Assembly: GCA_964589975.1 (NCBI GenBank)
Contig: CAZPVH010000001.1
Location: 246,851-310,850, forward strand
DNA: 64,000 bases
Source of the DNA: an uncultured Candidatus Saccharibacteria bacterium
GTDB lineage: Bacteria; Patescibacteriota; Minisyncoccia; Phycocordibacterales; CSBR16-119
Direction: 5' to 3'
Made by a program: the position numbers and the translations under genes. The notes beneath the pieces were generated by a model, which made no database searches, was not told where the DNA came from, and worked only from the letters and a program-made list of their open reading frames with translations. Below are positions 3,031 to 59,697 of this stretch, piece after piece; the stretch's first letter is position 1; every line of letters starts with the position of its first letter.

Positions 3031-3894
3031 TTATTCACTATGCCCTCCTTCAATTTTTCCTTTCATAGTACGAAGTTCTTTCAGCCATTTCTGCTCCTGT
3101 TCCTTATTCGGCGGCTTACCATGCCACTCATAATCATATTCGATTTCTTTTATGCCCTTGCCCGCAATGGTGTGCGCAATTATAACCGTCGGTTTTTCAA
3201 CTATCGCTTTCGCTTGCTCAACAGCATCAACAATTTCCTCCATGTTGTGCCCATTAATTTCCAAAACGTGCCAATTGAACGCGCGCCATTTGTCGGCAAG
3301 GGGCTCGAGCGGCATGATGTTTTCCGTCATGCCATTTATCTGAATATTGTTCCGATCAATCACAACCGTCAAGTTTGAGAGCTTATTCGCCCCGGCAAAC
3401 ATGATTCCTTCCCATGAGTTTCCAGCATCGAGCTCTCCGTCTGATATGAAGCAATAGACTCTGAATTTTTTACCATCCATTCTGGCCGAATAGGCATATC
3501 CGGAGGCCTGAGAAATACCAGATCCGAGAGGTCCAGAAGTGTTTTCCATACCTGGTAATTTCTCTCTTTCTGGGTGACCCTGTAAGCGCGATCCGAATTT
3601 CCTAAGGGTCGAGAGCTCTTTTAGGGGGAAATAGCCGGCATGGGCCATTGCACAGTATCTGACGGGCACAATATGGCCGTTTGAGAGGAATAATCGGTCC
3701 CGGTCAGGCCACTCCGGCTCAGCGGGCTTATGGTTCAAAATATGGAAATAAAAAGCCGTAAAAACGTCAGCCATGTCCAAGGGTCCCGCTGTGTGCCCAG
3801 ATCCAGCGTCTTCTAACATATCAATGATGCTCTGTCGAATATCATTCGCCTTCAGTTCGAGCATCTTTTCTTTTTCAGGGTTTAAACTAGACAT
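3031..3894 (-). CDS. tkt: transketolase, N-terminal (TPP-binding) subunit of a split transketolase
   Basis: 287 aa. GSGHTAGPLDMADVF and GHPE motifs of the TPP-binding half. Confidence 0.9.
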   Translation of the reverse strand: MSSLNPEKEKMLELKANDIRQSIIDMLEDAGSGHTAGPLDMADVFTAFYFHILNHKPAEPEWPDRDRLFLSNGHIVPVRYCAMAHAGYFPLKELSTLRKFGSRLQGHPEREKLPGMENTSGPLGSGISQASGYAYSARMDGKKFRVYCFISDGELDAGNSWEGIMFAGANKLSNLTVVIDRNNIQINGMTENIMPLEPLADKWRAFNWHVLEINGHNMEEIVDAVEQAKAIVEKPTVIIAHTIAGKGIKEIEYDYEWHGKPPNKEQEQKWLKELRTMKGKIEGGHSE

Positions 3895-4163: not shown

Positions 4164-4833
4164 TTGAAATATTCTTAAAATCCTCTATCGAAACACTTGG
4201 ATTATTCGCGCCGAAGACCACTGATCCGGAAACTACTCGAGTTACGCCGATTTGGGCAAGTTCGTGAGCGGTATCGAGATTTATCCCTCCATCAACTGAA
4301 ATTATAGCATTCTGCTTGATCACCCTTACTTTATTTGCCTGATCCAAGACCCTTGGATCAAATGGCTGACCTTGATAACCAATGTTCTCTATTCCCATGA
4401 GCTGTACAAAGTCTGCTTTCGCGATAACTTCTTTCCAGTCATTCAGATTGTCAGTCGCCAGGAACGCAACTCCCCACTCAATGCCGAGACTTTCGATTTC
4501 TTTGGTGAAAAAGTCTTTGTCGTCAATAGAATTCGCGTGAACGATGAGCCTGCTAGCGCCGAGCTTCACGAATTTTCTCAAATCCGCCTCGGGTTCCCTA
4601 ACCATCAGGTCAAACTCGTATTTAATCTTGTCGGAATACGGCAGACGAATCTCGCCATCCATTAGTTCTCGTGCGCTCTGTTTGTCTTTTTCAAAAAATG
4701 GCCATGACTTCGATTCGACGAACTGACCGTCCATGAGGTCTAGCTGAACATAGTCCACGTATTCGAAAACTTTTTCCGCATGCTCGCGGATATCGTCAAA
4801 GCCTTTCGGCATAATGGCGGGGATGATTTCCAT
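4156..4833 (-). CDS. rpe: ribulose-phosphate 3-epimerase
   Basis: 225 aa. DLMDGQFV and VDGGIN motifs. Confidence 0.85.
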   Translation of the reverse strand: MEIIPAIMPKGFDDIREHAEKVFEYVDYVQLDLMDGQFVESKSWPFFEKDKQSARELMDGEIRLPYSDKIKYEFDLMVREPEADLRKFVKLGASRLIVHANSIDDKDFFTKEIESLGIEWGVAFLATDNLNDWKEVIAKADFVQLMGIENIGYQGQPFDPRVLDQANKVRVIKQNAIISVDGGINLDTAHELAQIGVTRVVSGSVVFGANNPSVSIEDFKNISNG

Positions 4834-12699: not shown

Positions 12700-13036
12700 G
12701 ATCTTTTATGACACGATCAGCCAGCCAATTCAAAACTGAGACGATGAGCGAACCGAGGAATGCGGCCATAAACGTATCTACTGTCATACCCGGGATGAGA
12801 CCAGAAACAAACCAGAAGAACAGAGCGTTCAGGATAAGCAGAAAAAAACCGAGAGTAATTATGGTGATCGGAATTGTCAGAATTTTTACGACAGGCTTAA
12901 CCGCAACCTGGATAATGGTAAGCGCGGCTCCGGCGATAAGAATCGAAACCCAATCCGCCAGCTCAATTCCCGGTATCAGATAATCAGCGGCAATAACCGC
13001 GAGGGTTAGAAATATGAATCTAAAAAATAATTTCAT
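12692..13036 (-). CDS. DUF360/YvlD phage-holin-4-like membrane protein
   Basis: Four TM helices with the GxxxAxxxA pattern. The start was set to the Met at 13036, directly abutting an arm of the repeat element. Confidence 0.6.
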   Translation of the reverse strand: MKLFFRFIFLTLAVIAADYLIPGIELADWVSILIAGAALTIIQVAVKPVVKILTIPITIITLGFFLLILNALFFWFVSGLIPGMTVDTFMAAFLGSLIVSVLNWLADRVIKDRD

Positions 13037-13157
13037 CCCGTTAGAAGCAGGTCGCGGTCTTATCGCTACCAGCATATTTATCAATTATAATACTGTACTT
13101 TGAATTTAACATAATTTGATTTGTCATCCCGTGGCCGCGGCGTTTAACGGGATTCAT
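13034..13157. repeat. intergenic inverted-repeat element, copy A (left arm CATCCCGTTAGAAGCAGGTCGCGGTC, AT-rich core, degenerate/composite right arm)
   Basis: Left arm 13034-13059 abuts the ATG of the holin-like gene. Right arm 13125-13157 is a collapsed palindrome CATCCCGT..AACGGGATTCAT. Confidence 0.8.
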
Positions 13158-13163
13158 ATCCTT

Positions 13164-13616: not shown

Positions 13617-13656
13617 ATCACCATGTTAGCAAATTTGATAGAATGTTTCCAGATCT

Positions 13657-13770
13657 CCCGTTAGAGATCGTGGTCGCTAGTAAGAAAAAACCTTATGAAA
13701 ATATCAAATACAAATATTATTAAAATAGGCTGGATAGTCTGCGGAACGACCGCGACCTATCTCTAACGGG
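13657..13770. repeat. intergenic inverted-repeat element, copy B (in a divergent intergenic region)
   Basis: Arms CCCGTTAGAGATCGTGGTCG (13657-13676) and CGACCGCGACCTATCTCTAACGGG (13747-13770). The right arm is immediately followed by ATG at 13771. Confidence 0.8.
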
Positions 13771-14493
13771 ATGAAAAAACAAACACTTCTTTTCCTTGAT
13801 ACAGAAACGACCGGCAATCAGCCTTCCGACCGGCTTTGTCAGCTTTGCTACAAACTGGGCAACAAAATCGTAAACGAACTTTACAAGCCGCCAGTTACCA
13901 TAAGTATTGAATCCATGGCCATTCATCACATCACGACAAAGATGGTGGAAGATAAACCGGCGTTTACAGAAAGTCCTGAATACGAAGAACTAAAGGGTTT
14001 ACTTGAATCCGGCGCAATCCTCATCGCGCACAATGCCAAATTTGATATCGGTATGATTGAGAAAGAGGGTCTCACAGTTCCAACTCATATTGATACATAC
14101 CGCGTAGCGCGCCATCTCGATACCGAAAGTAAAATTCCTTCTTACCGACTCCAATACCTTCGATACTTCCTTGGGATTGTCATCGATGCCACAGCTCACG
14201 ACGCCAAAGGTGATGTTTTGGTTCTGGAGCAGCTATTCGACAGACTACTGGCAAAGATTATGGAAAAGGACGGGCTGTCCAAAGAGGAAGCAATTGAAGC
14301 GATGGTAAAAATTTCCGCCGAACCAGTTACATTTACCATGTTTAACTTCGGCAAATACAAGGGCAAGACTGTATCTGAAGTCATTGCTTGTGATCGGAAC
14401 TACTGCCAGTGGCTCCTGACTGAGAAAAAGAAAAACCCGGCTGATGAAGAGGATTGGATCTATACTCTTGAAAAACTGCTCGAAGTGAAGTAG
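13771..14493 (+). CDS. DEDDh 3'-5' exonuclease (DnaQ/epsilon-like), with a C-terminal extension
   Basis: FLDTETTG ... HNAKFD ... H..DAKGD exo motifs. Confidence 0.8.
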   Translation: MKKQTLLFLDTETTGNQPSDRLCQLCYKLGNKIVNELYKPPVTISIESMAIHHITTKMVEDKPAFTESPEYEELKGLLESGAILIAHNAKFDIGMIEKEGLTVPTHIDTYRVARHLDTESKIPSYRLQYLRYFLGIVIDATAHDAKGDVLVLEQLFDRLLAKIMEKDGLSKEEAIEAMVKISAEPVTFTMFNFGKYKGKTVSEVIACDRNYCQWLLTEKKKNPADEEDWIYTLEKLLEVK

Positions 14494-22214: not shown

Positions 22215-22289
22215 GGCCCTATCGTCTAACGGTTAGGACGGATCCTTCTCAAGGATTAAATCGGGGTTCGATTCCCCGTAGGGTCACCA
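22215..22289 (+). tRNA. tRNA-Glu (anticodon CUC), CCA encoded
   Basis: Cloverleaf folded by hand: 7 bp acceptor stem, 8 nt D-loop, anticodon loop TTCTCAA, T-loop TTCGATT, 3' CCA. Confidence 0.85.
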
Positions 22290-43835: not shown

Positions 43836-43977
43836 CCGGTAATTAGTGGCAATAGTTTGCCCGCCTAGATATTTAAATAATAATTCAACTAAAAAACCCG
43901 CTTCTTTGATTGGCCTTTTGCCAAACTATTGCAGGATTTTTATACTAACAGAGGCTCCGCAATAATGCAAGGGGAAA

Positions 43978-44196
43978 CTATAGGCGTCTTGAAATCCTGC
44001 CTTTTTCAGCGGCTCGATCTGTCACCACTTCTACCCTGTCGCCAATCATAATCTTGATCCGAAACTTTCGCATCTTACCAGAAAGATAGGCCAAAATTGG
44101 CTTCTCATTTTCCGGTATTTCAACACGGAAAGTAGTGTTTGGAAGCGATTCTATAACCGTTCCTGTGACAATTCTTTCATTTGTTTCCTCTCCCAT
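43978..44196 (-). CDS. infA: translation initiation factor IF-1
   Basis: 72 aa, S1-like IF1 fold. Confidence 0.9.
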   Translation of the reverse strand: MGEETNERIVTGTVIESLPNTTFRVEIPENEKPILAYLSGKMRKFRIKIMIGDRVEVVTDRAAEKGRISRRL

Positions 44197-44232
44197 TTAT
44201 AGATTAAAGAATAGCAGTAAAAAATCCCGGTG

Positions 44233-51516: not shown

Positions 51517-52053
51517 CTACAGACTCATTAATTTCTTGAACACTTCAAAAGTCGCGCGGGTATCGGCCAGAGCCGTATGCGACTTTTCGTTATGAATACC
51601 GAAATATTCGCAAAGGCGATGGAGATTGAATCGTTCGGCGCGTGGATCCTTGAAAAGCTTGGCGTAGGCCATGGAGATTGTGTCGAGTTTGGCATAAAAC
51701 ATTTCATTTTTCATACCAGTTTTCGTCAGAGCGCGTTCGATGAATGAGTAATCAAATGTTACATTCTGGGCAACCATGATCGCGCCGTCGGACTTTTCTG
51801 AAAATACTTTCATGGCCTCAGAAAGAGTGTTGGCAAAAATCCACTGAGCTTCATCATATCCATTCACTTTGAGCGCCGTCGGCTCCGCATTTTCTATATG
51901 CTCCGGTTTTATCTTCATCTCACGCTCTTCGATAACGGAAAAATTTCCCTTATCCTGTTTTACCAAGATGTAAGCGAGCTCAATGATCTCATGCTTCTCA
52001 GGATCAGTTCCCGTAGTCTCAACGTCGACAAAAATCAAATTCTCGTTTCTCAT
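51517..52053 (-). CDS. DEDDh 3'-5' exonuclease (DnaQ-like)
   Basis: FVDVETTG ... HTALADT motifs. Its ATG is fused to an arm of repeat copy C. Confidence 0.8.
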   Translation of the reverse strand: MRNENLIFVDVETTGTDPEKHEIIELAYILVKQDKGNFSVIEEREMKIKPEHIENAEPTALKVNGYDEAQWIFANTLSEAMKVFSEKSDGAIMVAQNVTFDYSFIERALTKTGMKNEMFYAKLDTISMAYAKLFKDPRAERFNLHRLCEYFGIHNEKSHTALADTRATFEVFKKLMSL

Positions 52054-52167
52054 CCCGTTAGAGGCAGATCGCGGTCTTGTCGCAATCTGCCTTAGTTATA
52101 TTTTTAATTTTATTTTGATTTGAATTCATAATTTTAAATTTTTACAGCGGTCGTGGCCTCTAACGGG
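52051..52167. repeat. intergenic inverted-repeat element, copy C
   Basis: Arms CATCCCGTTAGAGGCAGATCGCGGTC and GCGGTCGTGGCCTCTAACGGG. The core has TTCAAA-N18-TATAAC on the minus strand. Confidence 0.8.
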
Positions 52168-52174
52168 ACGCATA

Positions 52175-56820: not shown

Positions 56821-57375
56821 TTATTTGCCCATTATGACACCCTCTTTTCCCCTGAAGATTTCTTCCAGCGAGAGATTGGCTTCATCGACTTTTGATTGCA
56901 GATTTTCCTTGGCCCGAATCTTTTCGTCCTCTGACATCTCGCCTTCCCTGGCCTGGCGATCAATCTCGCGGATCATGTTCTCGCGCTCTTTCTTGACGGA
57001 CACCCTGGCATCCTCGAGCTTCGCTTTTATAACCTTCACCAGTTTCTCGCGGTTCTCGGTCGTAAGCATTGGGAATATTACCCTGAGTCCCGTCTGGTCA
57101 ACGGCAACGGAAAGACCGAGGTCAGATTTCAAAATCTCTTTTTCAATTTCTTTCACCTGCTGCTTGTCCCACGGAGTCACTCGGAGAGTCTTCGGGTCCT
57201 CAATTGAAATAGACGCCACGTTTCGAAGTGGCTGCCTGGTGCCATAAGAGTCGACAGAGATTCCGTCCAGAACCATCGGGCTCGCAGCACCGGTATGAAG
57301 GGAAGAATATTCCTTCGTCAGCCAGTCTTTCGTCCCGCGAACGCTGTCTTCGAACGGTTTTAGATTGAATTGCAT
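56821..57375 (-). CDS. frr: ribosome recycling factor
   Basis: 184 aa with an RRF pattern. Its ATG is fused to an arm of repeat copy D. Confidence 0.9.
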   Translation of the reverse strand: MQFNLKPFEDSVRGTKDWLTKEYSSLHTGAASPMVLDGISVDSYGTRQPLRNVASISIEDPKTLRVTPWDKQQVKEIEKEILKSDLGLSVAVDQTGLRVIFPMLTTENREKLVKVIKAKLEDARVSVKKERENMIREIDRQAREGEMSEDEKIRAKENLQSKVDEANLSLEEIFRGKEGVIMGK

Positions 57376-57490
57376 CCCGTTAGAAGCAGGTCGCGGTCTT
57401 TACGCGATCTGCCATGATTAGATTTATAATTGTTACTTTTATTGTCATAAATTTGAATCCTTACTCACGCGACCGCGGCTTCTAACGGGA
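57373..57490. repeat. intergenic inverted-repeat element, copy D
   Basis: Arms CATCCCGTTAGAAGCAGGTCGCGGTC and GCGACCGCGGCTTCTAACGGG, with about 70 bp of AT-rich core. Confidence 0.85.
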
Positions 57491-57569
57491 TTGCATAAGT
57501 AAGAGAATTCTAGCAGAAAAGTCTTTCGAACAAAAGAAGAGCCCCGACGCAACGCCGGGGCCTCGTTCT

Positions 57570-58103
57570 TCATGCTGCGGCCATCCTAATGGAGTAGCTT
57601 CCTTTGCCGGAAATAGCCATCCCGTACAAACCATCCTCGAGATATACGAGAAGTGTCGTATGAAGCGAAACAAAGAACACCTTGCCGCCACTAACGTAGA
57701 CCGAGAGAATCGCTTTTCCGTCCTCGGGCATAAAAGCAGTGTCGCTGTCTTCGTAGATCTCAGCCATGAAGGTCAGAAGCGGGTTTTCCGCCGTAAGCTT
57801 AAAAAGCTCTGACAATCTGTCCTGAATATCTTGTTCGGTCTCACAACCAACCAGCAGTTCGGTCTGCATTTTGATATCCTGGGCAAGATAATAGATCTCC
57901 TGCGAATCATCGTCTTGATACTGGAAGATCCTGACAGGCACCTCGGGCGAATCTTCCTTCTCTTCGTCTGATACGAGATACTGCCCTTCCGTAAGACCTT
58001 GCAGATTTTCTGCGACGAGAGATGAGGCCACGGTATAGAAATATTCTGTCACAACCCGTGACTGCTCTTCGCCTTCCTTGAAGCTAACAGTGAGCTTTTT
58101 CAT
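57570..58103 (-). CDS. acidic hypothetical protein (177 aa)
   Basis: Complete ORF. A hairpin plus T-run lies just upstream. Confidence 0.4.
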   Translation of the reverse strand: MKKLTVSFKEGEEQSRVVTEYFYTVASSLVAENLQGLTEGQYLVSDEEKEDSPEVPVRIFQYQDDDSQEIYYLAQDIKMQTELLVGCETEQDIQDRLSELFKLTAENPLLTFMAEIYEDSDTAFMPEDGKAILSVYVSGGKVFFVSLHTTLLVYLEDGLYGMAISGKGSYSIRMAAA

Positions 58104-58159
58104 GTCGGAGCGGGTTTGGTTTTAGAAAAGCATACGCCTCAGAGAATTTTTGTCAAAAA

Positions 58160-58196
58160 GAAAGAGCCCCAACGTACGAATGTCGGGGCTCAGTGG
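58160..58196 (-). terminator. rho-independent terminator (minus strand) ending an upstream ORF-poor region
   Basis: GAGCCCCGACATTCGTACGTTGGGGCTC followed by TTTCTTTTTG on the minus strand. Confidence 0.55.
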
Positions 58197-58832
58197 AGAC
58201 GTGCTCCATTATCTTCTTTTTGATCTTTCTCTTGGAAAATCCGAGGAGGGTTCATATATCCTCTTCTAATTTCCTAGGTTTCAGCAAGAGATTCTCTAAC
58301 GTCCGCGAGATCAGTCTGCGGGTAGACACTTTCCGATCTGAAAATTCTGCTTATCAAGTTCTAGAACCTCGATCAGCATAGCTTTCATCACGTTCCGTGA
58401 CACATGGTTCGCGGGGATCTTATCCACCGAGACCAAGGCTTTCTATCGTATACCTTTCATGAAGGGTGCGGTGATGTGTGTGAAGAAACGTTTCGAGTTG
58501 CTTCACATCGGGTTAGTGTGGATGATTAGACCACTTTCCAGATTTTGTTCTAGGTTGTCTGGTTTTGATATGCGTCTTTGCCGCTTGGTTGTAGGACGCT
58601 ATGCCTACAAACCTGCGCACAAGGGTCCACCGGTCCCGACGACGTTCTCTGGTGGGGCTTTAGATGTTATTTTGTTCACCTGTGATTAACCTAGACTGAA
58701 CTGACTAAGCGTTCGCACAGCTGAGCTGTGAAGGAACTGTGGGAAATAGCTTAGCACAAAGGCACGGACTTGTCAAGTCTCTTCTTTTATGTCCTTATTT
58801 TAAGCCTTTTTTATAAATCCCCTCTCCGCGGA

Positions 58833-58903
58833 GCAAAATATATATTTCTGAATTCGAGGACCTAGCGAAGCGCTCCCGCAGGACTCAGAAATATATATTT
58901 TGC
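58833..58903. repeat. perfect 19-bp AT-rich inverted repeat with a 33-nt loop
   Basis: GCAAAATATATATTTCTGA ... TCAGAAATATATATTTTGC, directly downstream of the holB stop. Confidence 0.7.
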
Positions 58904-58907
58904 GAAG

Positions 58908-59573
58908 CTATATTGTTACCGCCAAATGCTCCAAAAGTATCTTCGGGCTTGATCCTTGGTCGCCAATGTATTTCTTGGCCAGATATATATCCTCTACTTT
59001 CTTCTTCTCTGGCATCACCACTCCCCTAGAAATCTCCTTTTCAAGCTCCCCCAGAAACCGTAGTGACTTATCTTTCAAAAGCGGCTTTGATTCCATGTCA
59101 GTAAATTTTTTTATAAAGTCCAGGCGCTCCTTTATGCTTCCAGCCAGGAATTTCTTCGCGTCTTTCTTTAGTTCATCTTCGGCGGCAAACTCACCTATTG
59201 TCGCCATAAGCCGCGAGCGAAGCGTTGGGAAAAGTTTCGTCGCGTCCGGCATGAGGAGGAAAAATGTAACTCCGGGTCGAGGCTCTTCGAAAGCTTTGAG
59301 AAGCGCGTTTTGCGCCGGATATGAGAAAGCGAGAGTCTTTAGGATAATGAATCTCTTTTTAGAATTTATATTCATCGCCTCGGACTCGAAGTCTTTGATC
59401 TCGCGGACATGGTCAATGAGGAGATTCTCATAATCCTTCTCAAAAATGTCAGCATTCCCTGTTGTGAGGTAGCCGAGCTCGTCCAGGGACTTCGCGAGTT
59501 CTTTGTAAGACAAATGAATATCACCCTCTATTAGATACGCATGGTGATTTATTCCGTTCTTTAAGATATTCAT
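58908..59573 (-). CDS. holB: DNA polymerase III delta' subunit-like clamp-loader protein
   Basis: AQNALLKAFEEP motif. Start reset to MNILKNG at 59573, fused to an arm of repeat copy E. Confidence 0.7.
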   Translation of the reverse strand: MNILKNGINHHAYLIEGDIHLSYKELAKSLDELGYLTTGNADIFEKDYENLLIDHVREIKDFESEAMNINSKKRFIILKTLAFSYPAQNALLKAFEEPRPGVTFFLLMPDATKLFPTLRSRLMATIGEFAAEDELKKDAKKFLAGSIKERLDFIKKFTDMESKPLLKDKSLRFLGELEKEISRGVVMPEKKKVEDIYLAKKYIGDQGSSPKILLEHLAVTI

Positions 59574-59688
59574 CCCGTTAGAAGCAGGTCGCGGTCGTTC
59601 CGCAATCTCCTTGGCCATAATTTATAAACTTTATATATATTTTCATATTCGGTTTTTTAAATAAATCGCGACCGCGGCTTCTAACGGG
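59571..59688. repeat. intergenic inverted-repeat element, copy E
   Basis: Arms CATCCCGTTAGAAGCAGGTCGCGGTC and CGCGACCGCGGCTTCTAACGGG. Confidence 0.85.
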
Positions 59689-59697
59689 AAGAATCTT

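Follow-up and report, generated by a model that had tools for sequence, protein, structure and literature searches.

What occupies the 804 bp between holB and the gene that follows it in this Candidatus Saccharibacteria genome? The window, i.e. the whole 64-kb stretch of DNA that was analysed, carries on its minus strand mreB (60729-59698), holB, a gap (58104-58907), a gene for a 177-aa protein (58103-57570), frr (57375-56821), an M50 protease gene and a sigma factor gene. When ORFs of at least 80 aa are considered, this gap is the largest of the window, the next ones measuring 473, 424 and 364 bp. The genomes of Saccharibacteria, like those of other CPR bacteria, are tiny and densely coding; in them, a gene-free stretch of 800 bp is costly and so likely to matter. 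To our knowledge, almost nothing is known about the non-coding RNAs of CPR bacteria past the universal ones, and we know of only a handful of members of large bacterial non-coding RNA families.

A first-pass annotation, made from the sequence alone, had proposed that the gap holds either a non-coding RNA (ncRNA) or a gene remnant. Here, we favour the first of these readings and, with a probability of about 0.72, propose that the gap contains a stand-alone minus-strand gene for a structured ncRNA of ~585 nt. This RNA would belong to a new, modular family that is limited to one clade of Saccharibacteria and occupies a hypervariable slot.

Coding content of the gap

The holB ORF as called spans 59618-58908; its true start lies at 59573, since all homologues are 221 aa long. 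In the gap itself, the longest ORF on either strand has 76 aa, and the GC content (0.43-0.49) is equal to that of the flanks, so that the absence of a convincing ORF and the normal base composition recorded in the first pass both hold. A 3-periodic Markov coding model was trained on the genes of the window, with holB and the 177-aa gene outside the training set. Its score is sustained and positive in the correct frame in mreB, holB, frr and the 177-aa gene, and in none of the six frames between 58160 and 58900. The density of stop codons in the gap is that of random sequence.

Three features border the part of the gap that is discussed below:

58833-58903, strand unassigned: perfect inverted repeat of 19 bp with a 33-nt spacer, directly after the holB stop
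58129-58156, minus strand: promoter of the 177-aa gene (TTGACA-16-TATGCT), between the RNA unit's terminator and the ATG, outside the RNA unit
57570-58103, minus strand: gene for a 177-aa acidic protein, which often, not always, adjoins the RNA unit

The inverted repeat (local folding z of -3.0/-5.2) is part of a stretch of ~95 nt that is missing in the related loci L084 and L085, and an analogous hairpin follows holB in loci L001 and L098. It is probably an end-of-holB hairpin, located upstream of the RNA unit and outside it.

A predicted promoter-to-terminator unit on the minus strand

Between these borders, the minus strand can be read as a promoter-to-terminator unit of ~585 nt, from ~58741 to ~58156, whose transcription we infer. 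It is composed of the following parts:

58748-58776, minus strand: putative promoter, found by eye, with a -35 TTGACA (58776-58771), a 17-nt spacer and an extended -10 TGcTAAGCT (58756-58748)
58672-58740, minus strand: 5' segment of the predicted transcript, unalignable even with the closest relative, L084
58557-58671, minus strand: conserved block V, with GUCGUCGGG..ACCCUUGUGCGCAGG, the hairpin GGUUUGUAGG/CCUACAACC and CGGCAAAGACG
58462-58530, minus strand: block X2, with the hairpin GUGAAG..CUUCAC (58507-58479), then CACCGCACCC
58387-58452, minus strand: core block Y, with UACGAUAGAAAGCC, helix H2 (58435-58405) and helix H3 (58401-58387)
58348-58378, minus strand: helix H4 of 12 pairs, in which L094 and L085 show two-sided compensatory changes
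58228-58343, minus strand: 3' domain, with H6 (58343-58330), H7 (58321-58303) and H8 (58291-58228)
58192-58210, minus strand: small hairpin GGAGCACGUCUCC, then ACUGA, just 5' of the terminator
58154-58191, minus strand: intrinsic terminator, with a stem (58191-58164) and a T-tract (58163-58154), local z of -4.6

The consensus -35 and extended -10 elements would drive the synthesis of an RNA that starts near 58741 and that the intrinsic terminator would end at ~58156. The -10 hexamer is too weak for the promoter-scanning tool. Nonetheless, the pattern TTGACA-N16-18-TAnnnT is found 14 times in the 64-kb window where 1.4 occurrences are expected (~10-fold), and the promoter of the unit is one of these 14. 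The terminator stem has 10 pairs, 7 of them G-C, and is followed by TTTCTTTTT, in agreement with the clean minus-strand intrinsic terminator that had been described at first. That a minus-strand transcript would end there is likewise a conclusion that we keep, on other grounds. Indeed, it had been drawn from the apparent lack of a promoter in front of the downstream gene (57570-58103), an argument that falls, as TTGACA-16-TATGCT is present at 58156-58129 and conserved in L085, L089 and L086.

A recurrent insertion slot between holB and frr

In most Saccharibacteria loci retrieved with RRF, holB and frr are separated by 13-70 bp (39 bp in L004, for example), while about ten lineages have inserts of 0.5-1.5 kb at this place. 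In all eight enlarged inserts that we inspected, a protein gene particular to the lineage has a promoter and a terminator of its own; in the window, the slot measures 1.5 kb and contains the ORF-free unit and the 177-aa gene. The usual short spacing, set against inserts that vary with the lineage, therefore designates the holB-frr junction as a recurrent insertion slot. Across loci L001-L101, its cargo comprises secreted proteins of 157-194 aa, a membrane protein, the 177-aa family and RNA units, each with its own promoter and terminator, and a CTTGACAAG-type promoter directly after holB is common to RNA units and to the protein cassettes of L001 and L092.

By searching with the holB protein and looking up the contigs, we found seven units in six lineages (that of the window and six in relatives), every one in the holB-frr interval. 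In L084 (holB 94% identical at the amino acid level), two tandem units, 84A and 84B, follow holB. In L085 (86%), a single unit precedes a homologue of the neighbouring gene (177 aa) and frr; in L089 (85%), the unit is short (~190 nt) and is followed by another homologue of this gene, of 171 aa. The unit sits after a gene of the family protein in L094/L095 (67%), and a unit of ~330 nt is the sole content between holB and frr in L098-L101 (67%). L086/L087 (85%) are devoid of the unit, and the promoter of the neighbouring gene lies directly after the holB stop; in L090 (75%) and L092 (73%), the slot is occupied by unrelated secreted-protein genes. With L004 and L001, which also lack it, this makes the unit missing in several close relatives, and from its absence in L086 to its presence as the only content in L098, it behaves as a discrete presence/absence cassette.

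The seven units all start with CTTGACAA-N15-TGnTAnnnT and all end with an intrinsic terminator (7/7 in each case). They measure 190-585 nt, occur in tandem once and are mosaics of common modules that differ in order and number. The window's unit and 84A both have blocks V, Y and Z. In unit 85, Y and a diverged Z are joined to the 5' part of 84B. A V-like 3' block is common to 84B and 89, and the motifs of block V recur in both units; unit 98 retains short motifs only. Block X2 is common to L085 and 84B and is partly deleted in 84A. Block Y is the most widely conserved part (window, L084, L085 and L094), and the region of the small hairpin GGAGCACGUCUCC is kept in L084 and L094, with CCACUGAG also present in L098. 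This mosaic organisation suggests that the modules may be independently folding domains.

Two Logan contigs are 100% identical to the window. The nearest GTDB representative by holB search is L001, a 'Candidatus Saccharibacteria' MAG (72% at the amino acid level); the GTDB scan with holB yielded one locus, without the unit. The unit was found in none of 80 loci of a metagenome scan with RRF, and nhmmer and blastn searches of the unit against 83 loci gave no match. No match was returned when 57540-58910 was compared by blastn ('distant' mode) with collections of phages and plasmids, nor when IMG/VR viral contigs were scanned with two conserved unit motifs. A covariance model of the H2-H3-H4 core recovered its four training sequences and one weak match in L047, and missed the divergent L098 unit. 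The L047 match (3121-3218, plus strand; 19 bits, E ~0.03) lies outside the holB-frr slot of a distant Saccharibacterium and is probably due to chance.

In L003, a public gene caller placed a 71-aa 'gene' at 910-1125 (corresponding to 58474-58689 of the window, plus strand), antisense to the RNA unit. As this ORF is uncalled in the identical contig L002, has no Pfam match and shows no coding signal, it is likely a false gene call. Such spurious ORFs, which gene callers sometimes put on the RNA unit, are a reason for which the unit merits annotation.

Conservation against neutral sites

Comparison of the window with L084 showed that mreB and holB are 83.5% and 82.7% identical in nucleotides, and that their four-fold degenerate sites, 49% and 40% identical respectively, are near saturation. 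The unit is far better preserved, with 96 identical positions out of 100 at 58656-58557 and 235 out of 250 at 58457-58208, these long blocks having 94-100% identity. With L085, for which the four-fold sites are 28-46% identical, the core has 82% identity over 129 nt and 69% over 304 nt. A 58-nt stretch of the core is 91% identical between L085 and 84A, and block Y is still 81% identical in L094, where the identity of the holB protein is 67%. We thus found, for this unit, a conserved promoter of its own, an intrinsic terminator of its own and nucleotide conservation above the neutral level, as for an ncRNA gene. Within the joint probability given above for the whole ncRNA-gene reading, the core (H2-H3-H4 and the 3' domain) would be kept by selection on both sequence and pairing.

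The very high identity between the window and L084 could partly reflect a recent exchange of cassettes between lineages rather than selection. In its extreme form, this idea would make the unit non-functional inserted DNA whose similarity among strains stems from recent horizontal cassette exchange. The slot is indeed recombinogenic, as seen from the presence/absence polymorphism, the mosaic units and the tandem copy, and the identity between the window and L084 has abrupt edges, at 58671 and at a 30-nt deletion. Against this, identity along the unit is graded (72-100% per 50 nt) and not uniformly ~100%, which argues against a single recent transfer. Moreover, conservation of the core extends to L085 and L094, although the identity of their holB proteins to that of the window is 86% and 67%, promoter and terminator are retained in 7/7 units and the changes are compensatory. 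We consider it very improbable that the unit is inert inserted DNA.

The same comparisons bear on the possibility that the unit is the eroded remnant of a protein-coding cassette, its promoter and terminator being leftovers. The slot gives this idea some substance: lineage-specific genes of 99-217 aa fill it in other lineages, eight other enlarged holB-frr gaps hold a promoter, an ORF and a terminator, and the unit (~585 nt) and the neighbouring gene cassette (~590 nt) are of similar size. In addition, three differences between the window and L085 in block Y lie 15 nt apart and would be synonymous in one frame; this frame, however, lacks a start codon and is bounded by stop codons at either end. 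The first pass had suggested looking for a decayed protein gene. Six-frame translations searched against 5.8 billion proteins gave no match at E<=1, and tblastn of all slot proteins against all units had a best E of 0.56, so that this check revealed no similarity with proteins, including those found in the slot of relatives. A decayed tandem copy of the neighbouring 177-aa cassette was also considered and rejected, the similarity being limited to the terminator. Neither interrupted protein similarity nor residual frame statistics, the marks of a pseudogene, were found: no frame has a coding signal and stop density is random-like. Finally, decay would not leave 94-100% identity where four-fold sites are 40-49% identical, and it would not retain helices through compensatory changes. 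Of the two initial proposals, the remnant thus appears improbable and fails for want of protein similarity, while the ncRNA is the one that agrees with the promoter, the terminator, the conservation, the helices and the lack of coding signal.

Could the transcript instead be an mRNA for one or more small proteins? Two short ORFs were considered:

58436-58311, minus strand: 41-codon ORF with a TTG start, of which a 25-codon version with an ATG start begins at 58388
58255-58190, minus strand: 21-codon ORF, preceded by GAGGA

The shorter ORF has a Shine-Dalgarno-like AGAGGA 3-4 nt upstream and its first 14 codons are identical in L084; towards its end, however, it shifts frame in L084. The 41-codon ORF differs between the window and L084 at three positions, all of them non-synonymous, with loss of the first ATG. 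Neither L085 nor L094 has any small ORF in common with the window or L084, and the coding score is not positive. Furthermore, all three overlapping frames are equally 'conserved' between the window and 84A; therefore, the constraint acts on nucleotides. A small-protein mRNA is an improbable reading of these data, and the ncRNA gene accounts better for them.

Conservation of RNA structure

Folded as a single sequence, the body of the unit without its terminator is not significantly stable (z of the minimum free energy of -1.4 on the minus strand and -1.2 on the plus strand). Among 120-nt windows, only the terminator and the inverted repeat at 58833-58903 stand out in local folding. The wealth of local hairpins first attributed to the region is thus not apparent in single sequences, and the support for structure comes from the comparison with relatives only.

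RNAalifold predicted eight helices on the alignment of the window's unit, 84A and 85 (369 columns). When compared to column shuffles that preserved the gap and conservation pattern, the consensus energy had a z of -3.5 in the sense orientation (0-1 of 150-200 shuffles) and of -2.4 in antisense, and four other MAFFT modes gave values of -3.3 to -4.1. With the window and L085 only, z was also -3.5, and 11 two-sided compensatory pairs were counted where 5.6+-2.3 were expected (a number reached in 4/200 shuffles). In the core, helices H2, H3 and H4 have 88% of their cells paired over four sequences, while slid controls pair at 36-45%. Five pairs of this core have two-sided changes instead of 1.5+-1.0 (1/500), these pairing counts being biased, as the helices were first derived from the tested sequences.

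Some changes can be read directly in individual helices. Around its conserved YUGAU loop, H7 has the stem CCGC/GCGG in the window, GCGCAA/UUGCGU in L085 and CGUCAC/GUGACG in L094. L085 retains the stem of H3 although the loop, of 3 nt, is enlarged to 16 nt, and L094 has a rebuilt tip of H2. MAFFT places L085 in two different ways around H3/H4, where the alignment is ambiguous. For block V, which MAFFT misaligned, the RNAalifold fold across divergent members carried no information. Altogether, these comparisons point to a structure conserved through compensatory changes, with a modest power that is due to the 4-5 independent sequences and to the near identity of the window and L084 in the informative blocks.

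Comparison with known RNA families

At the gathering threshold, Rfam identified in the whole window only a tRNA-Glu located elsewhere. Even at E<=10 with permissive filters, no family matched 58000-59000 on either strand, and in the homologues L084, L085 and L089 only terminator look-alikes appeared at E<=5. The Rfam scan of both strands that had been put forward as a check was thus carried out and gave no match to a known housekeeping RNA. ARAGORN found no tmRNA and, as its only tRNA, the tRNA-Glu at 22215.

Among housekeeping RNAs, RNase P RNA (RF00010/RF00011 and relatives, with the P4 pseudoknot and CR-I to CR-V) had no covariance-model match in the window or in three homologues. tmRNA, standard or permuted, with its tRNA-like domain and tag frame, was found by neither ARAGORN nor Rfam, and SRP RNA and 6S RNA had no covariance-model match. 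RNase P RNA, tmRNA and SRP RNA were rejected on this lack of Rfam matches and on the absence of the unit from several close relatives, which also indicates that the unit is not an essential housekeeping RNA. A weak resemblance to RNase P RNA had been pointed out at first. It amounts to 12/15 nt between GAAGGGTGCGGTGA and the GAAAGGGUGCGGUAA region and proved spurious: GAAGGGTGCGGTGA, at 58461-58474 of the plus strand, is a conserved element of block X2 of the minus-strand unit read in reverse complement, and hence opposite to the promoter-terminator strand, and Rfam gives no match to RNase P RNA even at E<=10. Close relatives moreover lack the locus, which would be impossible for an essential RNA unless relocated.

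A further comparison is with the large bacterial RNAs listed in Rfam, whose functions are obscure or have begun to emerge only recently. As OLE, ROOL, GOLLD, HEARO/IscB omega-RNA and raiA, the window's unit is unusually long for a bacterial ncRNA (~0.6 kb), stand-alone and multi-helix, conserved in sequence and pairing, with an ORF-free, GC-normal footprint and an accessory, non-universal distribution. It differs from them in that the new units fit no Rfam model, are so far known from one slot in one Saccharibacteria clade and are module mosaics of 190-585 nt. OLE, ROOL, GOLLD, HEARO and raiA themselves were rejected (no match at E<=10, nor at E<=5 in three homologues), and no IscB, TnpB, reverse transcriptase or phage gene was seen in the context of the unit. 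With multicopy or 'sibling' trans-acting sRNAs, the unit shares its own sigma-70 promoter and Rho-independent terminator, paralogous copies (in tandem once) and strain-variable presence; in contrast, it is 3-5 times longer than a typical sRNA and conserved over hundreds of nucleotides rather than in a short seed. Within the 64-kb window, the RNA has no antisense complementarity longer than 13 nt. The other holB-frr cassettes (L001, L092, L094 and others) occupy the same slot and have the same architecture, in which a CTTGACAA-type promoter adjoins the end of holB and a cargo and an intrinsic terminator follow, but their cargo is a protein of 99-217 aa, often with a signal peptide, whereas that of the window's unit is non-coding. 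Our literature searches turned up no account of an RNA of this kind in Saccharibacteria or CPR bacteria.

The neighbouring gene and the possible mode of action

The unit is always located upstream of the next gene, on the same strand, and the terminator that ends it could in principle be conditional. This raises the possibility that the unit acts in cis, as a long leader or attenuator governing read-through into the gene(s) that follow. A riboswitch, T-box or leader is expected to have a fixed class of downstream gene and competing folds, and we found neither. The gene downstream is of the 177-aa family in the window, L085 and L089, and it is replaced by a second unit in L084, an unrelated 185-aa gene in L094 and frr in L098. 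No alternative anti-terminator pairing was seen, and no riboswitch, T-box or leader family matched in Rfam beyond the terminator look-alikes. The neighbouring gene also has its own consensus promoter past the terminator, kept where the unit is missing. A cis-acting leader therefore fits these contexts less well and seems improbable, in favour of a stand-alone ncRNA gene.

The 177-aa protein belongs to a small and very fast-evolving family: the window and L085 proteins have only 33% identity, and its 20 representatives share 25-35%, with the conserved motifs FKPG..QS..A..YF, LRIW and G.GLA..G.GSYLIE. A word-indexed search with this protein returned only itself. Its AlphaFold model is of high confidence (pLDDT 92.9), and no Pfam, PDB or fold relative was found for it. 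A distant member of the family (L096/L097) is located outside the holB-frr slot.

It appears most likely that the RNA would act in trans, probably by binding proteins or as a scaffold, in an accessory role that varies among strains; the data agree less well with a housekeeping RNA, a cis leader or a base-pairing sRNA. More speculatively, and with doubts that outweigh our confidence, the units could form a new class of large (up to ~0.6 kb), modular and structured RNAs, restricted to Saccharibacteria, that are located in a hypervariable slot beside a rapidly diversifying protein family and act, alone or with that protein, in conflict or host interaction and not in housekeeping. Anti-phage defence, counter-defence or control of the epibiotic lifestyle would be examples, and the shuffled modules would then be interchangeable functional domains.

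With blocks that are more conserved than the adjacent essential genes and with a fold that appears conserved, the unit is a testable candidate for a new large bacterial ncRNA family. Its slot, beside a fast-evolving protein whose confidently predicted fold has no known relative, is suggestive of a biology that is specific to strains, for instance in defence or in the interaction with the host, and this is what is least understood in these epibionts.

Additional observations in the window

Another gap of 364 bp (43869-44232) has no ORF of at least 80 aa. A strong promoter-like sequence, TTGACA-17-TATTCT with a TG (44236-44208, minus strand), points into it, and this gap could hold another small gene or ncRNA.

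We also noted a palindromic element of ~115-120 bp that abuts start codons and consists of TCCCGTTAGA(A/G)GCCGCGGTCGCG, ~60 nt of AT-rich sequence and GACCGCGACCTGCTTCTAACGGG|ATG. Five copies are present in the window where none is expected (59571-59689, 57373-57490, 52051-52168 and 13029-13158 on the minus strand, 13656-13775 on the plus strand). Others are found in L029 (3110-3233), L084 (1102-1219), L089 (~1-28) and L092 (~4540-4640), and the element is missing before frr in L001 and L004. Its terminal arms covary (GAAGC/GCTTC, GAGGC/GCCTC, GAGAT/ATCTC), and a duplicated ATGCAA or ATGAA flanks three of the five window copies as well as the copy before frr in the distant L029. The element may be either a start-codon-targeting MITE or a conserved 5' leader hairpin, and its presence accounts for the 15 codons by which the called holB ORF is spuriously extended at its N-terminus.
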